Assembly: GCA_965231875.1 (NCBI GenBank)
Contig: CBDDOM010000002.1
Span: 3,139,942 to 3,203,941 of the forward strand
DNA length: 64,000 nt
DNA from: Alphaproteobacteria bacterium
GTDB lineage: Bacteria; Pseudomonadota; Alphaproteobacteria; MPNO01
Direction: 5' to 3'
Shown here piece by piece: positions 13,246 through 23,966 of this stretch; position 1 is the first letter of the stretch, and every line of letters begins with the position of its first letter. Both the position numbers and the translations under genes were made by a program. Below the pieces are notes generated by a model. The model saw nothing but the letters and a program-made list of their open reading frames with translations, searched no databases and had not been told where the DNA came from.

Positions 13246-15546
13246 ATGAAGACACCGGAGGCGGCGATGACGAATGCCGGGCCGATCGGCCGCCCGGTCC
13301 CGCGCAAGGAGGACGCGCGGCTGCTGCGCGGACGGGCGCGCTTCGTCGACGACGTCCGCCTGGGCCGGATGCTGCACGGCGTCTTCCTGCGCAGCCCGCA
13401 CCCGCACGCGGAGATCGGTACGATCGACACCTCGGCGGCGCTCGCGGCCGGGGCCCGGCTGGTGCTCACGGCGGACGACCTCCCGTTCGCTGACCGGGCG
13501 TTCGTGGTCCGCTATTGGCACGAGGCGATCCGCGGCGGCACCCAGCCCTTCCTCGCGCGCGGCCGGGTGCGCTACGTGGGCGAGCCGGTGGCGCTGGCGG
13601 TCGCCGACGATCCCTACCGGGCCGAGGATCTGGCGGGGCTGGTCGAGATCGCGTACCGCCCGCTCGACCCGGTTGCCGGGATCGAGGCGGCGATGGCGGA
13701 CGGCGCGCCCGGGCTCCACGACTCCTGGACCCAAAACGTCGCCGCCCGGTTTTCCTACCAGCGCGGCGATGCGGGCGGCGCGCTCGAACGGGCGGCGCGC
13801 CGCGTCACCCACGAATCCCGCTTCGCGCGTCAGATCCCGCTGTCGCTGGAGACCCGCGGCGCCGTCGCCGATTTCGACCGCTCGCGCGGCGCGTTGACCG
13901 TCCGGCTCTCGACACAGGCGCATTACAACGTCCGGGAAAACCTCGCTTCCCTGCTGGACCTGCCGGAAAGCGCGGTGCGGGTGATCTGCGAGGACGTCGG
14001 CGGCGGGTTCGGCGCCAAGTCGCGCTGCTATGGCGAGGAGATCGTGCTTGCCGAGGCGAGCCGCGTGCTCGGCCGCCCGGTCAAGTGGATCGAGGACCGT
14101 CGCGAGAACATGCTGGCGACGACCCATTCGCGCGGGATCGACGTGACGCTGGAGCTGGGACTCTCCGAAGACGGGCGTTTCGAGGCGCTGCGCGCGACGG
14201 TCGCGCTCGACACTGGGGGCTATGTGTTCACCAGCGGGATCGCGACAGGCGAGCTCTGCGGCGCGTTGATCCCCGGCGCCTACCGGATCCCCGATTTCTC
14301 CGTCGAGGTGCTGGCGGTCGGCACCAACAAGACCCCGGCCGCGACCTATCGCGGCGCCGGGCAGCCGGAAGCCGCGCTCGCCATCGAGACCCTGGTCGAC
14401 CGTGCCGCCCGCGCGGTCGGACTCGGCGCGGCCGAGCTCCGCCGGCGCAACCTGGTGCGGCCCGGCGACCTGCCCCACGCGACGGGAACCGGATTCGGCG
14501 GCATCGCGTTCGAATTTCTCGGCGGCGATTTCCCCGCTTTGCTCGACCGGGTGACGGATGCAAGCGGTTATGACGAGGCGGTGGAAACCCGGCCCGACGG
14601 CACGCGCCTTGCCTGGGGGCTCGCCGGCGGCGTCGACGTTTCCGGCGTGGTCAACTTCGAGTCCGCGCGGGTCGGGATCGACCCGTCGGGCGACGTTCTC
14701 GTCCATTCGGGGATGAGTTCGCAGGGGCAGGGTCAGGCGACGACCTTCGCCCAGATCGCGGCAGACGCGCTCGGGGCGGATGTCGACCGCGTTTCGGTCG
14801 CCATGGGCGATACGGCGCTGCTCGCTTTCGGGCGCGGCGCGTTCGCGAGCCGGGGCGCGATCATGGGGGGCAGCGCGGTCCTTGAGGCGGCGGGGGCGTT
14901 GCGGGCGCGGACCCTCGAGGCCGCGGCGCAACTTCTCCAGGACGAAGCCGGCGGGCTCGACATCGTGGGCGGGCGCATCGTCCGGCGGAACGGCGGCGAG
15001 ACCGGGCTCACGCTCGGCGGGGTGGCGCGCGCCGTCGCGCCCGGCGGGCCGCTGTTCGACGGCGGCGCGGGACTCCAAGCGGAGACCGTCTGGCGCGCCG
15101 ACCGGCCCGCGACGCTCGCCTTCTCCGTCCATGCGGCGCGGGTGGCGGTCGATCCGGAAACCGGTTCCGTCGAGGTCGTGGACTATGCAATCGGCCACGA
15201 TATCGGGCGCGCGCTCAACCCCCTGATCGTCAATGGCCAGGTCGCGGGCGGTGCGGCGGAGGGGATCGCGAACGCGCTGCTCACCGAAATGATCTTCGCG
15301 CCCGACGGTCAGCCGCTCACATTGACCCTCGCCGACTATCTCGCCGGCGCCGCCGACGGCGCGCCCGCTCCGCGCCTGATCGAACGGGAAACGCCGTCGC
15401 CCACCAATCCGCTCGGCATTCGGGGCGTCGGCGAAAGCGCGACCATCGCGCCGCCCGCGGCGATCTGGAACGCCGTCGCCCGGGCCATGGGGTGGGACGC
15501 AGCTCCGGCCCGGATCCCGATTTCCCCCCACGCGCTGGCCGGTTAG
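13246..15546 (+). CDS. Xanthine dehydrogenase family molybdopterin-binding large subunit (CoxL-like), second paralog
   Basis: 766 aa; RKEDARLLRGRARFVDD N-terminus, YRGAGQ loop; similar architecture to 4820..7123. Confidence 0.8.
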   Translation: MKTPEAAMTNAGPIGRPVPRKEDARLLRGRARFVDDVRLGRMLHGVFLRSPHPHAEIGTIDTSAALAAGARLVLTADDLPFADRAFVVRYWHEAIRGGTQPFLARGRVRYVGEPVALAVADDPYRAEDLAGLVEIAYRPLDPVAGIEAAMADGAPGLHDSWTQNVAARFSYQRGDAGGALERAARRVTHESRFARQIPLSLETRGAVADFDRSRGALTVRLSTQAHYNVRENLASLLDLPESAVRVICEDVGGGFGAKSRCYGEEIVLAEASRVLGRPVKWIEDRRENMLATTHSRGIDVTLELGLSEDGRFEALRATVALDTGGYVFTSGIATGELCGALIPGAYRIPDFSVEVLAVGTNKTPAATYRGAGQPEAALAIETLVDRAARAVGLGAAELRRRNLVRPGDLPHATGTGFGGIAFEFLGGDFPALLDRVTDASGYDEAVETRPDGTRLAWGLAGGVDVSGVVNFESARVGIDPSGDVLVHSGMSSQGQGQATTFAQIAADALGADVDRVSVAMGDTALLAFGRGAFASRGAIMGGSAVLEAAGALRARTLEAAAQLLQDEAGGLDIVGGRIVRRNGGETGLTLGGVARAVAPGGPLFDGGAGLQAETVWRADRPATLAFSVHAARVAVDPETGSVEVVDYAIGHDIGRALNPLIVNGQVAGGAAEGIANALLTEMIFAPDGQPLTLTLADYLAGAADGAPAPRLIERETPSPTNPLGIRGVGESATIAPPAAIWNAVARAMGWDAAPARIPISPHALAG

Positions 15547-15611
15547 AGCGCAAGAGCCTATCCGTTTTAGTTCGGACCCTTCCCGCGCCGCCCCGGCCTC
15601 TCCTCTATCTC

Positions 15612-15768
15612 GTCATGCCCGGACTTGTTCCACTGCTGTCCGGTTCAGGCGTTCGGGGCAGGCTCCACGCCCATGAGCGAGACCGTCGCCGCCTCCTTGT
15701 TGTCACCCCGGACTTGTTCCGGGATCCAGGGCAGCCGGGTGAGGGCGGTGCCTGTGGCCTTGGACCCC
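15612..15768. repeat. REP-B family repeat copy (gtcatgcccggacttgttcc... / gtcaccccggacttgttccggg)
   Basis: Shares >20-nt blocks with copies at 31225, 36047, 37671 and 43683. Confidence 0.5.
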
Positions 15769-15950
15769 ATCTGTTTTAGATGGAACCGCTTGCACCGTTC
15801 CCTTCCGTCATGGTCGGCGGAGGCCGACCATCCACGAGTTTTTCTTTGTCGGCGGAACAACAGAAAACAAAACGTGGATGGTCGGCCTCCGCCGACCATG
15901 ACGCGGGAGGGGCAGGGACAGCAGCGGTTCCGCCTGAAACGGACAGGCCC
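15769..15950. repeat. MITE-like long imperfect palindrome (about 170 bp), copy 1
   Basis: cgtcatggtcggcggaggccgaccatccacg ... cgtggatggtcggcctccgccgaccatgacg inverted arms with about 30-nt loop; near-identical to 22410..22600. Confidence 0.65.
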
Positions 15951-17233
15951 TAGAAGCTGTAGGTGACGTTGAGGACGACGTACCCGTCGCGCCGGGTATC
16001 GTGGATCGCGTCTTTCTCGTCGACCTTGAGCATGACCGCCCCTTCCACTGTCGCGGTCCAGCTGTCCGACAAATCCCGCTTTGCTTCGAACCCCATCAGG
16101 TATGTCGAATAATCCGTGTCGGCGATGACGCTCGCCACGAACTCGGTGTTCTCGACGTCGTTCAGCGCGAGGCGGGATGCGAAGAAGACGTCGTTCTGGT
16201 ACCGGTTGGTCGACCGGCGCCCGCGCTCGTCGTAGCTCCACTCGCCGAGCAGGCTGATATCGGCCTCCGAATCGAAGACCCCGCTGAACGTGTACTCGAC
16301 CCCGGCGGCGAAGGCGGCGTAGTCCTCTTCCTTGCCCGCGGGGTTGCGCATGTCCGCCCGGTTTCTCGCCCCTTCGCGGCGGATGGCCTCGAGCTTGATC
16401 AGCCATGATTCGATGGTGAGCTGGGCGTCGAGCCCGTACTGGCGGATCTGCGCGTAGTGCGGGACCAGGGTCAACGATCCGCCATGGAATTCCGGATCGA
16501 AAGACGGCTCGCGGCTGGTGCCGTCGAACACGCTCACGCCCAAATCGAGCGGCCCGATGCTGCGGCTGTAGCGAGCGGCGAGGTCGACATGCCACTCCTC
16601 GGCCGCGCTCTCGTAGGAAACCCGCCTCTGGTCGAACGGGATCCGGGTCCGGAGGCGGCCCTTGCGCCCCGGCAGCGTCCGCTCGCGGTGAAGCGGCATG
16701 GCGAAGAACTCCAGCACGCCCCAGTCCGCCGACCAGGTGAGGTGGGCCATGAGCTGGCCCATCCGGCTCTCTTCGTTCGGGCGGTCGGTCAGGTCGACCT
16801 GGTTGACGATGTTGACCAAATGATGGAATTCGGTGACGCCCCAGAACACCCGGTCGACGCCGACCCGCGCCTCCCACTCGCCCTCGCCGAGCTCGCCGAA
16901 CAACAGCAGATAGGCCTCGCGCAGGTCGGCGTTGGTGCGGTGGGGATCCGCGCTGTCGTAGCGGTAATGCGGCGTGAGCGTGAAGCTTCCGCCGTCCTCG
17001 TGTTCGAGATAGAGCGTGGGTTCCGCGGTAAAGCCCAGGCTTCCGTCGCGCTGGCCCCGATGGGCCGCTTCGGTCGGGAACCAGCGGCCTTCCATGGTGA
17101 GGCGCCCCGAGAACTCGGCCTCGATCTTGCCGGTATCGGCGGCGGCGATCCAGGCGAAGACGGTGCAGGCGGCGCCCAGCGCCGCCCCGGCAGCGGCAGC
17201 GCGATGCCGGCGAAAGATGCGTGTCAGCGGCAT
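15950..17233 (-). CDS. Putative outer-membrane beta-barrel protein (secreted; unknown family)
   Basis: Signal-peptide-like N-terminus MPLTRIFRRHRAAAAGAALGAACTVFAWIAAA; C-terminal ...VLNVTYSF aromatic terminus; start is Met74 of ORF 15950..17452. Confidence 0.45.
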   Translation of the reverse strand: MPLTRIFRRHRAAAAGAALGAACTVFAWIAAADTGKIEAEFSGRLTMEGRWFPTEAAHRGQRDGSLGFTAEPTLYLEHEDGGSFTLTPHYRYDSADPHRTNADLREAYLLLFGELGEGEWEARVGVDRVFWGVTEFHHLVNIVNQVDLTDRPNEESRMGQLMAHLTWSADWGVLEFFAMPLHRERTLPGRKGRLRTRIPFDQRRVSYESAAEEWHVDLAARYSRSIGPLDLGVSVFDGTSREPSFDPEFHGGSLTLVPHYAQIRQYGLDAQLTIESWLIKLEAIRREGARNRADMRNPAGKEEDYAAFAAGVEYTFSGVFDSEADISLLGEWSYDERGRRSTNRYQNDVFFASRLALNDVENTEFVASVIADTDYSTYLMGFEAKRDLSDSWTATVEGAVMLKVDEKDAIHDTRRDGYVVLNVTYSF

Positions 17234-17509
17234 GCCATCGGTGTCCCGAATTTCGGCGCACTCGTGGGCGGAATCATAGTGGCCTCCGCCCCGCGTGGCA
17301 CGCGTGGGGTGCGATGCGGTAATCCAGACACGCACGCGGGTTGGTCTTACGGTACTCTTCCAAAGGCTACACCCTTGGCTTGTGCTCCCGATCCACCATG
17401 GACCGATGCTGTAGCACGGAGTATTTGAAGCGCGAATTCTGCGTGAGACCATTGTCCAGGCATGCCTGACGCGGTTATCGGCACTATGGATCCTGGGCAG
17501 GAGGGTAGG

Positions 17510-18871
17510 ATGTTAAAGAGACTGAAACTGACGAATTTCAAGGCATGGCGGGAAGCCGATCTGCGATTCGGGAAGGTGACCGGATTCTTCGGCACCAACA
17601 GCGCCGGCAAGAGCAGCCTTCTTCAACTCCTGCTCTTGCTCAAGCAGACCAAGAATGCGACGGACCGCGGCCTGGTGCTCGATTTCGGCGGGCCCTCCGA
17701 CTTCGTAAACCTCGGGACCTATAGCGATGTCGTGCACCGGCATGACGAGGAGACGAGAATAAGCTGGCTCCTCGACTGGTCTCTCCCAGAGACGATGAGG
17801 ATCGACCAGCGCGTGGCATCCCCCAGTCCCCTTGAATTGAAAGGAAATTCTCTTCAGACGCGATGTGAGGTCGGCCTGCGGCTCGAACGCCCTTGGCCGT
17901 ACGAGTTGGCATACAGGTTCGATGGGGTGGACTTCATTTTACAATCTCAGGTCGGTTCAGAGAACAAATTCAAGCTGGACACAACTGCCTCCGATTTCAG
18001 GTTCATACGCAATCAAGGTCGAGCGTGGCCGCTTTCCCACCCAATCAAGACGCACCTGTTCCCGAACGAGATGAGGGGTTTCTACCAGAACGCCGACTTT
18101 CTGCGCAATTTCGAGTTGGAATATGAGCGTTTCATGGACTCAATTTACTACCTGGGGCCTCTCCGGGAATATCCGCAGCGGGAATATGGCTGGGCAGGTT
18201 CCAGCCCCGGCGATGTCGGACAGCGCGGAGAACGCACGGTAGACGCAATCCTCGCCGCCAGTCGGGACGGACAGTCGAGGAGCCTCGGATATCGGATGCG
18301 CAGAAAAAAGTTTCAGGAGATGATCGCATATTGGCTCAGCGAGCTAGGGCTGATTCACGAGTTTCAAATCGAGGAAATTGTGAAAGGAACGAACCTGTAT
18401 CGGGCATTGGTGAAAACCACCCGGTCAAGTCCCCAAACCCTCTTGACCGATGTCGGGTTCGGCGTTTCGCAGGTTCTGCCGGCGCTGGTTCTTCTCTACT
18501 ACGTTCCAGAGGGTTCCACGGTGCTCATGGAACAGCCCGAGATCCATCTTCATCCTGCGGTGCAGAGCGGATTGGCCGATGTCATGCTGAATGTGGCGGA
18601 GGCCCGGAATGTGCAGATCATCGTGGAAAGTCACAGCGAGCACCTGATGCGGCGCCTGCAGCGCCGGGTGGCGGAGGAAGGGGCGTCCGCCGAGGACGTC
18701 AAGTTATATTTCGTTTCGACCAGCGGAAGCAGAGCGCAAGCGTCCGATCTCTGCCTGAATGAGTGGGGGGAAATCGAGAACTGGCCGGACAATTTTTTCG
18801 GCGACGAGATGGGAGAAATCGCGGCGATCACCAAGGCGTCTTTGAGGAGGAAAATAGGACATTCTCGATGA
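17510..18871 (+). CDS. SMC/OLD-like ABC ATPase (AAA_15/AAA_21-type), no nuclease domain
   Basis: MLKRLKLTNFKAW N-terminus; Walker A GTNSAGKSS; C-terminal LMEQPEIHLHP (Walker B/D-loop-like) and ESHSEHLMRRL (H-loop-like); perfect SD aggaggg 6 nt upstream of ATG 17510; lower GC than surroundings. Confidence 0.75.
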   Translation: MLKRLKLTNFKAWREADLRFGKVTGFFGTNSAGKSSLLQLLLLLKQTKNATDRGLVLDFGGPSDFVNLGTYSDVVHRHDEETRISWLLDWSLPETMRIDQRVASPSPLELKGNSLQTRCEVGLRLERPWPYELAYRFDGVDFILQSQVGSENKFKLDTTASDFRFIRNQGRAWPLSHPIKTHLFPNEMRGFYQNADFLRNFELEYERFMDSIYYLGPLREYPQREYGWAGSSPGDVGQRGERTVDAILAASRDGQSRSLGYRMRRKKFQEMIAYWLSELGLIHEFQIEEIVKGTNLYRALVKTTRSSPQTLLTDVGFGVSQVLPALVLLYYVPEGSTVLMEQPEIHLHPAVQSGLADVMLNVAEARNVQIIVESHSEHLMRRLQRRVAEEGASAEDVKLYFVSTSGSRAQASDLCLNEWGEIENWPDNFFGDEMGEIAAITKASLRRKIGHSR

Positions 18872-19344
18872 ACGCGTTTGTCGTGGACACCAATGTTGCG
18901 ATCGTTGCCAATGGCGGTAGCAGGACGCACGCCGATGAGCGATGCCAACTGACCTGTGTGGAAAGGTTGGAGTATCTGGTCAATCGCGGAACCATAGCGG
19001 TCGACGAAACAGGGCTAATGTTTGCCGAATATGCCGATCACTTGTCTTGGTCAGGCGCACCTGGTGTGGGGGATATGTTTTTCAAGCACTTGGTCGACAA
19101 TCAATATCTGGTCCATCGCGTTCGAAGAGTCCCGGTGACTCCGTGCGATGACGACCGGAAAGGATTTGAAGAACTGCCCTGGAACGCGTTCGATCCGTCG
19201 GACCGGAAGTTCCTGGCCGTCGCCGTTGTCGCGGATGCGGCGGTTCTCAACGCGACCGACAGCGACTGGGAGGAACAGGCGGCGCTGATCGCGGAATTGG
19301 GCGTCGAGATCGATCAGCTCTGTCCGCAGCACGCCAGCAAGTGA
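18868..19344 (+). CDS. Small PIN-like protein translationally coupled to the ATPase
   Basis: ATGA start/stop overlap with ATPase; N-terminal FVVDTNVAIV strand with conserved Asp; acidic residues at about 7/47/94/130 spaced like PIN catalytic residues; 158 aa. Confidence 0.45.
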   Translation: MNAFVVDTNVAIVANGGSRTHADERCQLTCVERLEYLVNRGTIAVDETGLMFAEYADHLSWSGAPGVGDMFFKHLVDNQYLVHRVRRVPVTPCDDDRKGFEELPWNAFDPSDRKFLAVAVVADAAVLNATDSDWEEQAALIAELGVEIDQLCPQHASK

Positions 19345-19381
19345 CGTTGGCCGAGCGGACATAGACGACGGTGCAGGGGCC

Positions 19382-20038
19382 TTGAACTGGAAGTATCCCA
19401 GAACGCCCTACTGGCCCCATTCCCCGGCTGTCGGCCGGGAGGACGGGGTGCATCCGGACCCCGGCCGTTTCGCGGGTGTGCCGGTTGTGGTGACGGAGAA
19501 GCTGGACGGCAGCAACATTCTCTTGCACGACGGCAAGGTTTACGGACGCAGCGTGTCCGCCCCCTCCGAAGCGAAATGGACGGCGATGGTGAAGAAACAC
19601 CATGCCTGGAAAGTGACCGGACCCGATGTCTACCTGTATGGCGAGGACATCTACGGGGTGCACAGCATCGTCTATGCGCCGGTGCCGGAAGACCGGACAT
19701 TCTACGCTTTCGCGCTCCGCGACGGGACCGGAGCCTTCGCCCCGTTCGCCGATGTGGAGGGCTATGCGGGGCGGCATGCCATCCCTGTCGTGCCCGTCCT
19801 GTTCAGGGGAATTGTCCGCTCCGTTGCCGAACTGCGGGCATTCCTAGAGCGCGCTCACGCCGAGCCCTCCATCCTCGGCGGCGAGCGCGAGGGTGTCGTG
19901 GTGCGGCGGGCGGCCGGGTTCCCGGAGGCCGAGTTCCCGCTCAACGTTTGCAAGAGCGTTCGCGCCGGCCATGTGCAGAGCGACGAACATTGGACGAGGA
20001 ACTGGAAGCCCTGCAAGCTCGCGCCGGGCCATGCGTAG
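19382..20038 (+). CDS. Minimal ATP-dependent RNA ligase family protein (nucleotidyltransferase domain only)
   Basis: Motif I TEKLDGSN (KxDG), motif III YLYGEDIYG, motif IV EGVVVRR, motif V CKSVR; TTG start; 218 aa, no OB domain. Confidence 0.65.
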   Translation: MNWKYPRTPYWPHSPAVGREDGVHPDPGRFAGVPVVVTEKLDGSNILLHDGKVYGRSVSAPSEAKWTAMVKKHHAWKVTGPDVYLYGEDIYGVHSIVYAPVPEDRTFYAFALRDGTGAFAPFADVEGYAGRHAIPVVPVLFRGIVRSVAELRAFLERAHAEPSILGGEREGVVVRRAAGFPEAEFPLNVCKSVRAGHVQSDEHWTRNWKPCKLAPGHA

Positions 20039-20113
20039 CGGGCGGGTCTTTCCGTGGGGAACCGCTACGCGGTGCTGCCGGATCGTTCGGGCATCCATCG
20101 GAGGAGCCAAGCC

Positions 20114-20542
20114 ATGAAAATCACCCCGGTCCATCCCGGCACGCCGCTGCCGGAGCACAACATGCCGTTCGTGCCGGCGTTCTCGGTCGAGGGCGGGCGG
20201 ACGCTCTGGCTCGCCGGGATGGGGCCGGTGCCGATCTACCACAGGCACCCGCACGATCCTGTCGACGAAGTGCAATGGTACCAGGGCGGGTTCCGCGTCC
20301 AGTGCGAGCGCACTTTCGAGAACATCGAGCGCATCCTCGCCGCCGCCGGCGCCGATCTCACCAACATCGTGAAGATGACCCAGTACCTCACCCACGTGAT
20401 GCGCGACCAGGACACGCTCAACGAGATCACCTGGGAGCTGTTCGGGCGCGAGCGCATGCCGCCCCGCACGCTGCTCGGCGTGCCGACACTGGCGCATGAT
20501 GACATGCTGCTGGAGATCGACGTGGTGGCGCAGGTTCCCTAG
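20114..20542 (+). CDS. RidA/YjgF/L-PSP family protein
   Basis: 142 aa; start MKITPVHPG inside ORF 20054..20542; typical RidA length and C-terminal half. Confidence 0.7.
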   Translation: MKITPVHPGTPLPEHNMPFVPAFSVEGGRTLWLAGMGPVPIYHRHPHDPVDEVQWYQGGFRVQCERTFENIERILAAAGADLTNIVKMTQYLTHVMRDQDTLNEITWELFGRERMPPRTLLGVPTLAHDDMLLEIDVVAQVP

Positions 20543-20603
20543 CGCCGGGTCGCGAAATGTCGTCTAATCCGGCGCGAGTTCGAGAAGACCGGCGGGAGTA
20601 GCC

Positions 20604-21431
20604 ATGGCGATCACCGTAAGCCCGCTTTCCGAGGCGATCGGGGCCCGGATCGAGGGCGTCGATTTGAGCAGCGAGCTCGATACCGGCACCTTCGATACGA
20701 TCAAGAACGCGCTGTTCGAGAACGCCATCGTCGTCGTCCCCCGCCAGACCCTCGACGAGGACGACCAGGAACGGTTCTGCCGCTATTTCGGCGAGCTCGA
20801 GATGGTCCGCTCCGGCCAGGCGCCCAGCGACCATCCGGCGGTGCTGATGATCACCAATGTCACGGACTCCGGCCGCCCGACCGCGCTCGAGGACGGCGAG
20901 ATGATGTTCCATTACGACCAGTGCTACTACGAGAACCCGGCGCTCGGCTCGACGCTCTACGCCATCGAGGTGCCGGACGAGGGCGGCAACACGCTATTCG
21001 CCAATTGCCGGCTTGCCTACGAGGCGCTCGATGACGGCTGGAAAGCGCGGCTCGACGGTCTCCGGGCGCTGCATTACTACGACTACAAGCGCGATCCCAC
21101 GCTGCGGCCGTCCGAGATCAACCCGGACGCGCCGCAATGGGTCCATCCCGTGATCCGCACCCACCCCGAGACCGGGCGCAAGGCGATCTACGTCAACCGG
21201 CTGATGACGCTCTGGATCGAGGGCGTCGACCGCGACGAGAGCGACGGGATCCTCGACTACCTGTTCGCCCATATCGAGAAGCCGGAATTCGTCTACGAGC
21301 ACGAGTGGACGGTGGGCGAGCTGATCATGTGGGACAATCGCTGCTCGGCGCACGCGCGCACCTGGTTCTCGCCCGAGAAGCGGCGGATGATGCGCCGGGT
21401 GACGGTGCGCGATCCCCACCCGGTCGTCTGA
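20604..21431 (+). CDS. TauD/TfdA-family Fe(II)/2-oxoglutarate-dependent dioxygenase
   Basis: 275 aa; HYDQCYY...H..D iron motif and C-terminal WDNRCSAHAR signature. Confidence 0.85.
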   Translation: MAITVSPLSEAIGARIEGVDLSSELDTGTFDTIKNALFENAIVVVPRQTLDEDDQERFCRYFGELEMVRSGQAPSDHPAVLMITNVTDSGRPTALEDGEMMFHYDQCYYENPALGSTLYAIEVPDEGGNTLFANCRLAYEALDDGWKARLDGLRALHYYDYKRDPTLRPSEINPDAPQWVHPVIRTHPETGRKAIYVNRLMTLWIEGVDRDESDGILDYLFAHIEKPEFVYEHEWTVGELIMWDNRCSAHARTWFSPEKRRMMRRVTVRDPHPVV

Positions 21432-21439
21432 GGCCGGAC

Positions 21440-22405
21440 ATGGGCTCCATCGACATCGAGAAGGCGGAACGGCCGACGCGCGGGCGCGTCGGCGGCACCG
21501 ACAAGGACCGCGCGGCCCGCTTCCGCGCCCGCTTCCCGCCGTCGGCGAAGAGAAGCCTCTATATCCGCGACAAGATCCTGCTGCCGGCGCGCGAGCCGCC
21601 GGTCAATCCCGAGCGCAGCGAGATCGGCGACCCCGCCGAGGCCGCGCGCGAGATCCGCGACACGGCGCGCGAGATGGGGGCCGACGCGGTCGGCATCGCC
21701 GAGTACGACCGCCGCTTCGCCTTCACCCAGGCCGGCGATCCGAAACACTCCGCCGTCGTCGTCTACGGGATCGCGATGTCCTACGACAACATGGCCGATA
21801 TCGGCCCGCGCTCGCAGGAGGAGGTGCACCGGGTTTATCACGCGCTCGACGATATCGGGGTCAGGCTCGCCCACCAGATCGCGGCGTTCGGCTACAGCGC
21901 CACGATGCAGCCCAACGAGGGCGACATCCCGATGCCGGCGCTCGCCTGGCTCGCCGGTCTCGGCGAGCTCGGCAAGCACGGCTCGCTGATCTCGCCCGAG
22001 CTCGGTTCCTCATTCCGGCTCGGCGCGGTGACCACCGACATGCCGCTCGAGGTCGACGGGCCGGCGGATTTCGGAATCGACGAGGTGTGCGCGAAATGCG
22101 GCGTGTGCACCCGCTTCTGCCCGGGCGATGCGATCAAGCCGGACAAGCGGACGGTCAACGGGATCGAGCGCTGGCATGTCGACACAGCGGCCTGCGAGCC
22201 GTGGTTCCACAAGCTCTACGGCTGCAAGATCTGCCTGATGGTCTGCCCGCTCAACAGCCGGGGCGTGTTCGGCGAGGATTTCAAGCGCGCCTCGCGCGTC
22301 CTGGTCGATGCCAGGGACGCCGACGGGATGCTGCGGCTGATCGAGGAGCGGACGGACATGCATTACGAGGATTTCGACGACGCGCCGAAAACCGGCGAGG
22401 ACTAG
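21440..22405 (+). CDS. 4Fe-4S di-cluster protein, QueG/reductive-dehalogenase-like
   Basis: CAKCGVCTRFCPGDAI and CKICLMVCPLN ferredoxin motifs preceded by GSSFRLGAVTTDMPLEVDGP, laid out as in epoxyqueuosine reductase. Confidence 0.5.
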   Translation: MGSIDIEKAERPTRGRVGGTDKDRAARFRARFPPSAKRSLYIRDKILLPAREPPVNPERSEIGDPAEAAREIRDTAREMGADAVGIAEYDRRFAFTQAGDPKHSAVVVYGIAMSYDNMADIGPRSQEEVHRVYHALDDIGVRLAHQIAAFGYSATMQPNEGDIPMPALAWLAGLGELGKHGSLISPELGSSFRLGAVTTDMPLEVDGPADFGIDEVCAKCGVCTRFCPGDAIKPDKRTVNGIERWHVDTAACEPWFHKLYGCKICLMVCPLNSRGVFGEDFKRASRVLVDARDADGMLRLIEERTDMHYEDFDDAPKTGED

Positions 22406-22409
22406 AGCC

Positions 22410-22600
22410 TGTCCGTCTTGGTTGGAAACGCTCGCACCGTTTCCTTCCGTCATGGTCGGCGGAGGCCGACCATCCACGAGTTTTTCTTTGTCAGCGGAAC
22501 AACAAAAAACAAAACGTGGATGGTCGGCCTCCGCCGACCATGACGTAGGAGAGACAGGGACAGCAGCGCTTCTATCTAAAACGGATACGCTCTAGCCCGG
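22410..22600. repeat. MITE-like long imperfect palindrome, copy 2
   Basis: Core 22449-22543 nearly identical (2-3 mismatches) to 15808-15902; flanks also similar. Confidence 0.65.
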
Positions 22601-22607
22601 CCGCGTT

Positions 22608-23966
22608 TTACCCCATGGTTCGCGGCAGCCAGAGAACGATCCCCGGGAAGGCCAGCAGCACCCCGACCGTGATCGCGTCGGCGACGAAAAACGGCCCGAT
22701 ACCGCGAAACACGTCCTGGAGCGGAATGGCGAGGGACCGGCCCTCCGCGTCGCGCAGTTCCCGCGAAACGCCCGCGACCACGAAGCAGTTGAGTCCGATC
22801 GGCGGGGTGATCAGGCAGATTTCGGCCATCTTGACGACGATGATGCCGAACCAGATCGGGTCGTAGCCGAGCGCGACCACCGCCGGGAAGACCACCGGAA
22901 GGGTGAGGACCAGCATCCCGATCGCATCCATGAACATGCCGAGCACGGCATAGGCGAGCAGGATGCAGATCATGATCAGGATGGGCGGCATGTCGAGCGT
23001 GACCACCCAGTCGGCGAACGCACCCGGCAGGCCGGCGAAGCCGAGGAAGCGGACGAACAGGAAGACGCCCCAGATCAGCGTGAAGATCATCGCGGTGAGC
23101 TTGGCCGTTTCCATCAGCGCTTCGCGGAGCCTGCCGCGCATTTCGCCGAGCGCTCGCTCGCGCCAGGCCCTCAGCACGTAGAAGCAGAACACCACCATGG
23201 CGCCCAGCGCGCCGGCCTCGGTCGGGGTCGCCGAGCCGGTATAGAGCGCGCCGAAGATCACGCCGATGACGATGAAAATCGGCAGCGTGCCGGGAAGGCT
23301 CTGGAAACGTTGGCGCCAGGTGAAGCCGCCGATCGACTGGCCGAACTCGGGGCGGATCTTGCACATGCCGATAATCAGCGCGGCGTAGATCAGCGCCGAC
23401 ACGATGCCCGGCAGGAAGCCGGCCAGCAGCAGCCGGCCGACCGATTCCTCCACGATGATCGCGTAGACGACGAGGATCGCCGATGGCGGTATCAGCGAGG
23501 CCAGCGTGCCGCCCGCCGCGATCACGCCCGCGGTCAGCCGGCGGTCATAGTCGTTGCGCAGCATGTCCGGGATCGCCACCCGGGAGAACACCGCCGCCGT
23601 GGCGGTCGATGCGCCGGAGACCGCGGCGAACCCGGCGGTCGCGAACACGGTCGCGACCGCGAGCCCTCCCGGGACCCAGCCGAACCAGCGGCGCGCCGCC
23701 TCGAACAGCCGCGAGGTGAGCCCGGCATAGAAGGCGAGAAATCCGATCAGGATGAACAGCGGCAGGACGGACAGCGGGTAGGTGACGGTCTTCGAATGCG
23801 GGATCGTGCCGGCGATCGCCCCGGCTATGCTCCAGTTCTTCAGCGCGAGCAGGCCGAGAAAGCCGGTCAGCGCCGCGGCGACGAAGACCCGGACCCCGAC
23901 GATCACCAACGCGATCAGGAGGCACACCCCGAGGATGCCGATGGTGAAATTGTCGAGGCCGAACAT
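22608..23966 (-). CDS. dctM: TRAP transporter large permease
   Basis: 453-aa polytopic membrane protein; start MFGLDNF is Met188 of ORF 22608..24527. Confidence 0.85.
   Translation of the reverse strand: MFGLDNFTIGILGVCLLIALVIVGVRVFVAAALTGFLGLLALKNWSIAGAIAGTIPHSKTVTYPLSVLPLFILIGFLAFYAGLTSRLFEAARRWFGWVPGGLAVATVFATAGFAAVSGASTATAAVFSRVAIPDMLRNDYDRRLTAGVIAAGGTLASLIPPSAILVVYAIIVEESVGRLLLAGFLPGIVSALIYAALIIGMCKIRPEFGQSIGGFTWRQRFQSLPGTLPIFIVIGVIFGALYTGSATPTEAGALGAMVVFCFYVLRAWRERALGEMRGRLREALMETAKLTAMIFTLIWGVFLFVRFLGFAGLPGAFADWVVTLDMPPILIMICILLAYAVLGMFMDAIGMLVLTLPVVFPAVVALGYDPIWFGIIVVKMAEICLITPPIGLNCFVVAGVSRELRDAEGRSLAIPLQDVFRGIGPFFVADAITVGVLLAFPGIVLWLPRTMG

Follow-up and report, generated by a model that had tools for sequence, protein, structure and literature searches.

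In a window of 64,000 nucleotides of alphaproteobacterial DNA (contig CBDDOM010000002.1 of assembly GCA_965231875.1), by which we mean the whole stretch analysed, three co-oriented genes occupy positions 17510 to 20038. They encode an ABC-type ATPase, a PIN-domain nuclease and a small protein of the ATP-dependent RNA ligase family. The first two correspond to HEC-03, described as a two-gene anti-phage system, and the third, the subject of this report, is very probably an integral component of operons of this type. The features at the locus are as follows.

17510 to 18871, forward strand: ABC-type ATPase with a C-terminal DUF3696 tail, the HEC-03 ATPase (PADLOC model PDLC04148, there named HEC-03B, 671 bits).
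18868 to 19344, forward strand: VapC-like PIN-domain nuclease of 158 amino acids, the HEC-03 effector (PADLOC model PDLC04147, there named HEC-03A, 220 bits).
19345 to 19381, forward strand: spacer of 37 nt between the PIN stop at 19344 and the ligase start at 19382.
19382 to 20038, forward strand: minimal ATP-dependent polynucleotide (RNA) ligase-family gene, third of the operon, assigned from Pfam and PHROG matches, motifs, PDB profile matches and likeness to DRB0100 of Deinococcus radiodurans.

The ligase open reading frame (ORF) encodes 218 amino acids from a TTG codon. The start at 19382 is supported by an alignment in which relatives begin at the same position with TTG, ATG or GTG. Most close relatives use a weak start codon (TTG or GTG) here, ATG being found in one of the ten sequences aligned (the window with the L002-L039 set; L numbers denote sampled loci throughout). 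The sequence-only reading of this DNA had proposed a stand-alone nucleotidyltransferase of the RNA ligase family, to be checked against Pfam, and the profile in question does match: PF09414 (RNA_ligase) scores 65.9 bits against a cutoff of 27 (E 6.5e-18, residues 34-191). Two PHROG families, phrog_34045 and phrog_24030, at least one of them annotated as RNA ligase, are also matched, and the NCBIfam and PADLOC libraries contain no model that matches the protein. The Pfam domain leaves flanks of 33 residues on the N-terminal side and 27 on the C-terminal side, which are too short for an OB or other accessory domain, so that the absence of an OB domain noted in that reading holds.

Motifs I, III, IV and V, named in the same reading, proved to be real. 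In an alignment (A3) that took in relatives down to 26-35% identity, the invariant positions include E39-K40-x-D42-G43-x-N45 in motif I, G87-E88 in motif III, E170-G171...R175 in motif IV and K191-x-V193-R194 in motif V, and K40 is the predicted AMP-accepting lysine. A phmmer search of the PDB with the single sequence returned nothing meaningful, but the alignment profile matched the nucleotidyltransferase (NTase) domains of Rnl3 and Rnl5 RNA ligases at E values of 1e-9 to 1e-5. The chains matched include the Rnl3 enzymes 8uce, Pab1020 (2vug) and MthRnl (5d1o) and, for Rnl5, Naegleria NgrRnl (5cot), and the match is confined to the catalytic core of the solved ligases, motifs I-IV. Judged by these profiles and motifs, the window ligase belongs to the covalent nucleotidyltransferase / ATP-dependent ligase superfamily.

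The two upstream genes carry the HEC-03 signature. The ATPase (453 amino acids; Pfam AAA_15, AAA_21 and DUF3696) also scores 210 bits against NsnB and 90 bits against AriA among defence models, and its ATG at 17510, preceded by GGAGGG, agrees with the profile and with homologue starts. Its stop codon overlaps the PIN start as ATGA (18868-18871). A Pfam scan of the PIN protein gave no match; its AlphaFold2 model has a pLDDT of 90.5, and Foldseek, searching the PDB with this model, placed VapC/PIN proteins at all of the top eight ranks (probability 0.66-1.0, TM about 0.5). The acidic residues D7, D46, E54, D69, D109, D112 and D131 are invariant across distant homologues, as is D133 within the window's clade. 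HEC-03 was described by Payne et al. as a two-gene system of an ABC ATPase and a VapC-like PIN protein (bioRxiv 10.1101/2024.01.29.577857; PADLOC-DB v2), and the Pseudomonas cichorii system protects E. coli from phages, needs both genes to do so and is toxic with IPTG (10.1101/2024.01.29.577857). The window proteins are 56% (ATPase) and 54% (PIN) identical to this validated system of P. cichorii ATCC 10857, and they show the same arrangement, in which the gene for the DUF3696-tailed ABC ATPase lies next to that for the VapC-like PIN, upstream of it and in the same orientation, with model scores of 671 and 220 bits. By homology, then, the window pair is a HEC-03 defence system, phage protection being known from the P. 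cichorii homologue. Payne et al. state that the HEC-03 upstream gene is unrelated to VapB (10.1101/2024.01.29.577857), and a VapBC toxin-antitoxin identity was likewise rejected for the window, where the upstream gene encodes the 453-residue ABC ATPase and not a VapB-type DNA-binding antitoxin.

What sets the window apart from the published two-gene system is the co-oriented minimal ligase that directly follows, here and in most sampled relatives. The coordinates bear out that it starts 37 nt downstream of the PIN gene on the same strand. The spacer at 19345-19381 contains no terminator-like or promoter-like match. A promoter and terminator scan of the locus gave nothing above chance: its two matches were a promoter-like site on the wrong strand and a terminator-like site that falls within the ATPase gene. 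An Rfam scan of window positions 15000-23500 returned nothing. Among relatives the distance between PIN and ligase ranges from a 4-nt overlap of the two ORFs (L088, L173) to about 60 nt, with a median gap of about 15 nt in the Azotobacter-type clade.

Co-occurrence of the ligase with ATPase/PIN pairs in other genomes, which had been suggested as a test of the linkage, was found from both directions. Starting from the ligase, one genome per species was scanned with the ligase alignment, yielding 79 loci at 67-86% identity from Alpha- and Gammaproteobacteria, several orders of Acidobacteriota, Latescibacterota, Gemmatimonadota, Rhodothermales, Thermodesulfobacteriota and Spirochaetia. The ATPase and PIN genes lie directly upstream, in the same order and with the same spacing, in 47-49 of the 79; nine more carry deletion remnants of ATPase/PIN with breakpoints that differ in each, and at 21 the ligase stands alone. 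Clustering of all flanking ORFs found no other neighbour common to more than seven loci, and for this reason we regard the ATPase-PIN-ligase trio as the mobile unit. Starting from the PIN, a PF09414 gene was found directly downstream in 6/6 cases in the window's own clade (six PINs on megabase contigs). One locus (L089) has insertion sequence (IS) elements in the ATPase gene and between PIN and ligase, and the ligase is still present. It occupies the same chromosomal site as L173, between Aminotran_5/NAD_binding genes and an MFS transporter gene, where the cassette of L173 is intact.

A more distant clade was sampled by a metagenome scan seeded with an Azotobacter-type PIN, which gave 80 loci, 63 of them with at least 750 nt downstream. 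The ligase directly follows the PIN in 61 of these 63, intact in 60 of the 61, and an HNH endonuclease takes its place in the other two. On two shorter contigs (L128, L159) no ligase was found in the roughly 630 nt available downstream of the PIN. Annotated plasmids of Azotobacter chroococcum (pAcX50e), Aeromonas veronii, A. salmonicida and Rhodococcus aetherivorans already display the arrangement as 'DUF3696 protein - hypothetical protein (PIN) - RNA ligase family protein', and a plasmid of Acinetobacter soli (L085) carries ATPase-PIN-HNH next to a DNA methylase. The two linked clades share strand and gene order although their ATPases are only about 45% identical. As a side observation, the Azotobacter/Aeromonas-type clade often has a gene for an HNH endonuclease (about 250 amino acids) as the fourth of the operon: it comes after the ligase at 14 of 61 loci (L090, L091, L094, L097, L114, L120, L132, L136, L141, L143, L147, L156, L158 and L163), and at L085, L153 and L160 it comes directly after the PIN without a ligase. 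Since the HNH gene follows the ligase at some loci and the PIN at others, the 3' end of the operon appears to be modular.

The three genes have also diverged together. Across 44 cassettes (the window and 43 complete loci), Mantel tests on pairwise identities gave r = 0.72 for ligase and ATPase, 0.61 for ligase and PIN and 0.68 for ATPase and PIN, with p = 0.001 in each case. The ligase thus tracks the divergence of ATPase and PIN as closely as these two track each other.

The principal argument against linkage had been base composition. In the window the ligase has a GC content of 65.6%, the ATPase 56.2% and the PIN 57.4%, against 67.5% for the window as a whole, as would fit a host housekeeping ligase that happens to lie beside a recently inserted low-GC island. 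That caveat does not survive the comparison with other cassettes: ligase GC exceeds ATPase GC in 43/43 complete cassettes, by 6.4 points on average, whatever the GC of the host flanks (46-73%), and the mean GC of all three cassette genes lies below that of the flanks. Ligase GC follows host GC (r = 0.89) more closely than ATPase GC does (r = 0.68). The GC step belongs to the cassette itself and gives no indication that the genes had separate origins. With the trio recurring at unrelated sites and in different phyla, conserved under both ligase-first and PIN-first sampling, and with the step present in 43/43 cassettes, coincidental adjacency is ruled out for practical purposes, and we are highly confident that the ligase is an integral part of the HEC-03-type operon.

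The family to which the ligase belongs is large. Bacterial rarity, as first supposed, is not borne out: homologues form 2108 clusters (50% identity) at E<=1e-3 and 243 at E<=1e-30, most of them proteins of about 220 amino acids. In a few giant proteins of 1000-2357 amino acids the ligase domain is embedded, with two matched stretches in each (P0298, P0299, P0310, P0315, P0341, P0381 and others). Jumbo phages also have homologues, of about 200 amino acids and 25-43% identity, in Atu_ph07, XacN1, SCTP-2 and Phosso; the ligase of Caulobacter phage CcrSC is longer, at 359 residues, and homologous in its C-terminal part, and phrog_24030, like the CcrSC ligase, aligns to the window ligase through its C-terminal NTase part. 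Identity with the structurally known Rnl3 or Rnl5 ligases was considered and ruled out, the defining accessory domains being absent. The NTase domain is homologous in both cases, but the window ligase lacks the N-terminal OB-like module that defines Rnl5 (DraRnl, NgrRnl), its match covering NgrRnl residues 155-325 only. Of Rnl3 (Pab1020, MthRnl, PDB 8uce) it has neither the N-terminal domain nor the C-terminal dimerisation domain, being 218 amino acids long against chains of 378-402.

The closest studied relative is DRB0100 ('LigB') of D. radiodurans, with 35% identity over residues 4-204, its full length (E 5e-28). Like the window ligase it consists of an NTase domain only, in about 210 amino acids, and the two have in common an N-terminal KYP..P..P.SP motif and motifs I-V including K40. 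Blasius et al. found that DRB0100 forms a covalent AMP adduct dependent on K40, at the same position as window K40 (PMC1997131). On these likenesses the window ligase is classed as a DRB0100-like minimal ligase. The settings differ. DRB0100 is the first gene of an operon with DRB0099 (PARG) and DRB0098 (HD-Pnk), a DNA-damage-induced ligase-PARG/macro-HD-Pnk end-healing operon that is not beside an ATPase/PIN pair, whereas the window ligase has ATPase/PIN upstream and RidA and TauD genes downstream, with no HD-Pnk and PARG/macro operon. On D. radiodurans plasmid MP1 (L081, 114777-125358) about 4 kb separate the DRB0100 operon from the DraRnl gene, which is annotated 'RNA ligase (ATP)'; this megaplasmid thus carries a minimal ligase close to an Rnl5 ligase. 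The ligases linked to HEC-03 form two subclades that are about 27% identical to each other, compared with about 45% for their ATPases: a DRB0100-like, window-type subclade with the N-terminal motif KYPRTPYWP, and an Azotobacter/Aeromonas/Rhodococcus-type subclade with FPHTPHL. This gap would reflect either faster evolution of the ligase or exchange of the partner, the association with ATPase/PIN being maintained in both cases.

The setting of the cassette is that of a mobile defence module. HEC-03 relatives were found in defence islands, in restriction-modification (R-M) neighbourhoods and on plasmids. The ligase and the whole cassette are 67-86% identical across at least seven phyla (L002-L080), and many names or bin labels of the metagenome-assembled genomes (MAGs) that carry it suggest symbionts of sponges or other marine hosts, for example Ca. 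Poriferihabitans. Taken together, this would suggest that the cassette has passed between phyla recently and within a single habitat, as judged from MAG names only. The closest syntenic relatives of the window locus are alphaproteobacterial MAGs including Defluviicoccus sp. (L002, L003, L005). The downstream RidA gene ('L-PSP endoribonuclease') was considered as a fourth component and rejected, being conserved in three syntenic relatives only. We also observed a 191-nt element in two direct copies, 87% identical, at window positions 15763-15953 and 22405-22595. Each copy contains a 44-nt near-perfect inverted repeat and looks like a miniature inverted-repeat transposable element or a REP-type palindrome. 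Together they bracket 6.6 kb with a DUF1302-like gene, the HEC-03-ligase cassette, RidA, TauD and an Fe-S-like ORF. Only these two copies occur in the 64-kb window; the element is absent from the 169 loci fetched and has no Rfam match.

Loss of the nuclease side is common among the ligase loci. In 30 of 79 the ATPase/PIN genes are lost or truncated and the ligase is intact. The 21 solo ligases keep all 23 residues that are invariant in the family, and three copies at remnant loci carry one conservative change each. At the remnant loci (L007, L011, L014, L018, L019, L024, L027, L028 and L034) most of the ATPase gene, the PIN gene or both is missing, owing to internal deletions that arose independently. 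Several of these keep the 5' end of the ATPase gene together with an intact ligase, and at L014 and L018 ATPase residues 1-50 are joined to PIN residues 63-157; upstream expression signals may have been retained for the ligase in this way. Solo ligases are seen in defence islands with unrelated modules (L001/L004 from Pseudohongiella, L017, L038, L047, L057, L062 and L077), identified by Pfam look-up at L001 and by eye from N-terminal ORF translations at the other loci. These comprise Nmad2-MazG_C-UDG, DUF499, GmrSD, another AAA_15/DUF3696 ATPase, type I R-M subunits, an NYN-domain protein, ImmA with a ubiquitin-like/E1 module, and paired AAA ATPases.

RNA cleavage and RNA repair are opposed in several familiar conflicts: PrrC and RloC, which also use an ABC-type ATPase module, against T4 Pnk and Rnl1; Pnkp/Hen1; RtcB reversing MazF damage; and damage-reversing antitoxins of the DarT/DarG type. 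The window operon resembles these in pairing an RNA-cutting immune or toxin enzyme with one that would undo the lesion. It differs in placing nuclease and ligase in one host operon, in having neither the kinase/phosphatase nor the Hen1 methyltransferase of Pnkp/Hen1 and T4 Pnk/Rnl1, and in a ligase that is not of the RtcB type. Its logic of an ABC ATPase with a nuclease is shared with the defence systems Menshen (NsnABC), PARIS (AriAB), Septu and Gabija, but the window operon contains no ParB/DUF262 sensor gene and none of these systems is described with a ligase. The window PIN moreover keeps its acidic catalytic residues, whereas the PIN-like domain of Menshen NsnC is inactive. For NsnB of Menshen, the DUF3696 tails have been predicted to hold a PIN-like domain in a clamp, and the ATPases of PARIS and Septu control the nuclease that they bind (PMC12065111). 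From these analogies the HEC-03 ATPase is likely a sensor or regulator holding the PIN effector, one that probably senses infection and licenses the nuclease.

We propose that window positions 17510-20038 are an anti-phage operon of three genes, of HEC-03 type and spread by horizontal transfer, in which the ligase provides a repair or antidote step for damage done by the PIN, and would put the probability of this reading at roughly 45%. The ATPase would sense infection and hold or release the PIN through its DUF3696 tail, as in Menshen, PARIS and Septu, and the VapC-like PIN would then cut RNA, probably a tRNA or rRNA of the translation apparatus. Being metal-dependent, the PIN would leave 5'-phosphate and 3'-OH ends; the ligase would take these ends and reseal the RNA, cancelling a leaky or finished activation so that the cell may resume growth. 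The ligase would then be a built-in repair step or antidote that stands outside the killing step. Resealing of PIN-cut RNA as the mechanism of this safeguard is a slightly more tentative claim than the reading as a whole. In short, we infer that the PIN cuts RNA leaving ligatable ends, that the ligase seals them and that the host is thereby protected.

Several observations are consistent with such a role. Classical ATP-dependent ligases require 5'-PO4 and 3'-OH ends, and metal-dependent PIN-like nucleases (PRORP, FEN-type) generally yield such ends. No kinase or phosphatase was found in the cassette or conserved beside the ligase, among the window ORFs and the clustered flanks; none would be needed if the PIN, like those nucleases, leaves directly joinable ends. 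The ligase would be dispensable for killing, because defence, and toxicity with IPTG, were seen with a related HEC-03 that had been listed and cloned with two genes. A pattern of antidote and poison is suggested by the loss of the nuclease side in 30 of 79 ligase loci, compared with only two of 63 PIN loci without a ligase, though this asymmetry compares two clades and two sampling schemes, each of which sees only loci that have its own query gene.

This limit on the asymmetry weighs against the antidote reading, and so do other points. DRB0100 showed no DNA or RNA ligation in vitro (PMC1997131), and the ligase-like protein encoded beside HD-Pnk in Runella slithyformis, studied by the Shuman laboratory, forms the enzyme-AMP adduct and sealed no tested 3'-OH/5'-PO4 substrate (PMC6097658); the gene context of the Runella protein suggests that it is of the same subfamily as the window ligase. 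VapC toxins are reported by one laboratory to leave 5'-OH ends, and the end chemistry is disputed (PMC6459853); if this applied to the PIN here, a ligase without an end-healing partner could not seal its products. The identity of about 27% between the two HEC-03-linked ligase subclades means that the partner may have been exchanged. An AlphaFold2 model of the ligase, built from a 21-sequence alignment, has a pLDDT of 51.6 and is unusable for a substrate-binding surface.

These points leave room for other roles, each of which we regard as improbable. The failure of DRB0100 and the Runella protein to go beyond step 1, enzyme-AMP, with sealing undetected, could mean that the ligase acts as an adenylyltransferase. 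The AMP would go to the 5'-phosphate end of a nucleic acid, so that PIN products are capped or marked and the cut RNA is barred from being processed further, or else to a partner protein, in which case the PIN or the ATPase would be regulated. The window ligase is also without every accessory nucleic-acid-clamping domain of Rnl1-5, as would suit such an enzyme. Yet motifs III, IV and V, which serve the later steps in classical ligases, are invariant throughout the family, and negative sealing in vitro may just reflect a missing substrate or partner, so that we give this role a low probability. The same reluctance of minimal ligases to seal generic substrates fits a dedicated partner or substrate, and this could equally be an offensive one: nuclease and ligase together might remodel a target RNA, excising nucleotides from a tRNA loop and resealing it, circularising it or mis-joining it, and so inflict damage without broken ends that lies beyond phage RNA repair such as T4 Pnk/Rnl1. 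Tight operon linkage and the co-divergence of the three genes would accord with a ligase that is part of the weapon, and the homologous ligases of jumbo phages indicate that repair is a live front. RloC, which excises the wobble base to frustrate phage repair, illustrates that irreparable damage can be a selected trait. Protection of E. coli by the closely related two-gene HEC-03, in which both genes suffice, speaks against a weapon that includes the ligase, as does the persistence of intact, fully conserved ligases at 30 of 79 loci where the ATPase/PIN genes are absent or deleted, a finding unexpected of a nuclease-dependent enzyme, and we hold this role, too, to be unlikely.

Solo ligases are among the arguments for a third possibility of similarly small probability, that of an autonomous nucleic-acid repair gene which travels in defence islands, acts against foreign nucleases such as competitor toxins or phage enzymes, has no functional interplay with the PIN and is linked to it by co-transfer only. 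Solo copies are fully conserved and stand beside unrelated systems (type I R-M, NYN, ubiquitin-like, other AAA ATPase modules, Nmad2/MazG_C/UDG), and relatives occur in the DRB0100-PARG-HD-Pnk operon and in jumbo phages. Co-transfer sits poorly, however, with a ligase directly downstream of the PIN in 61/63 and 6/6 loci, with 4-nt overlaps, with the same strand and order in two clades and with correlated divergence, and no other neighbour is conserved in this way. Chance adjacency, for which the GC values of the window speak, we consider to have next to no probability.

The antidote reading can be taken further, to a claim that we regard as rather doubtful: that HEC-03-type immunity is self-healing, the PIN stopping translation by cutting a specific host RNA and the ligase of the operon resealing exactly that cut, so that the arrest is reversible. 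If true, PIN-cut RNA would be the natural substrate of the minimal ligases that adenylylate but do not seal, such as DRB0100 and the Runella protein, and the ligase would need the PIN or the ATPase as its missing substrate-binding module.

The HEC-03 pair and the minimal-ligase family are known; for the ligase as a conserved third gene of the operon we found no prior description. The parts of the HEC-03 paper and supplement text that we consulted (10.1101/2024.01.29.577857) do not mention it. Literature searches on DUF3696 with ligase, and on RNA ligase with PIN, ABC ATPase and phage defence, likewise turned up no description of the trio, an earlier mention in the RNA-repair survey of Burroughs and Aravind 2016 being possible. 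Defence catalogues, notably the HEC-03 models of PADLOC, would have to be extended by a third gene and in some cases a fourth.

Abortive infection by cleavage of tRNA or rRNA is commonly regarded as irreversible, and RNA ligases are met with in these conflicts as repair enzymes of the phage. Where the ligase is routinely part of the host's own defence operon, a different design is suggested, in which RNA damage is controlled, reversible or insured. The finding offers a testable substrate hypothesis for a widespread family of minimal ligases (2108 clusters) that has been biochemically unassigned since 2007, and it bears on how cells survive their own immune nucleases.

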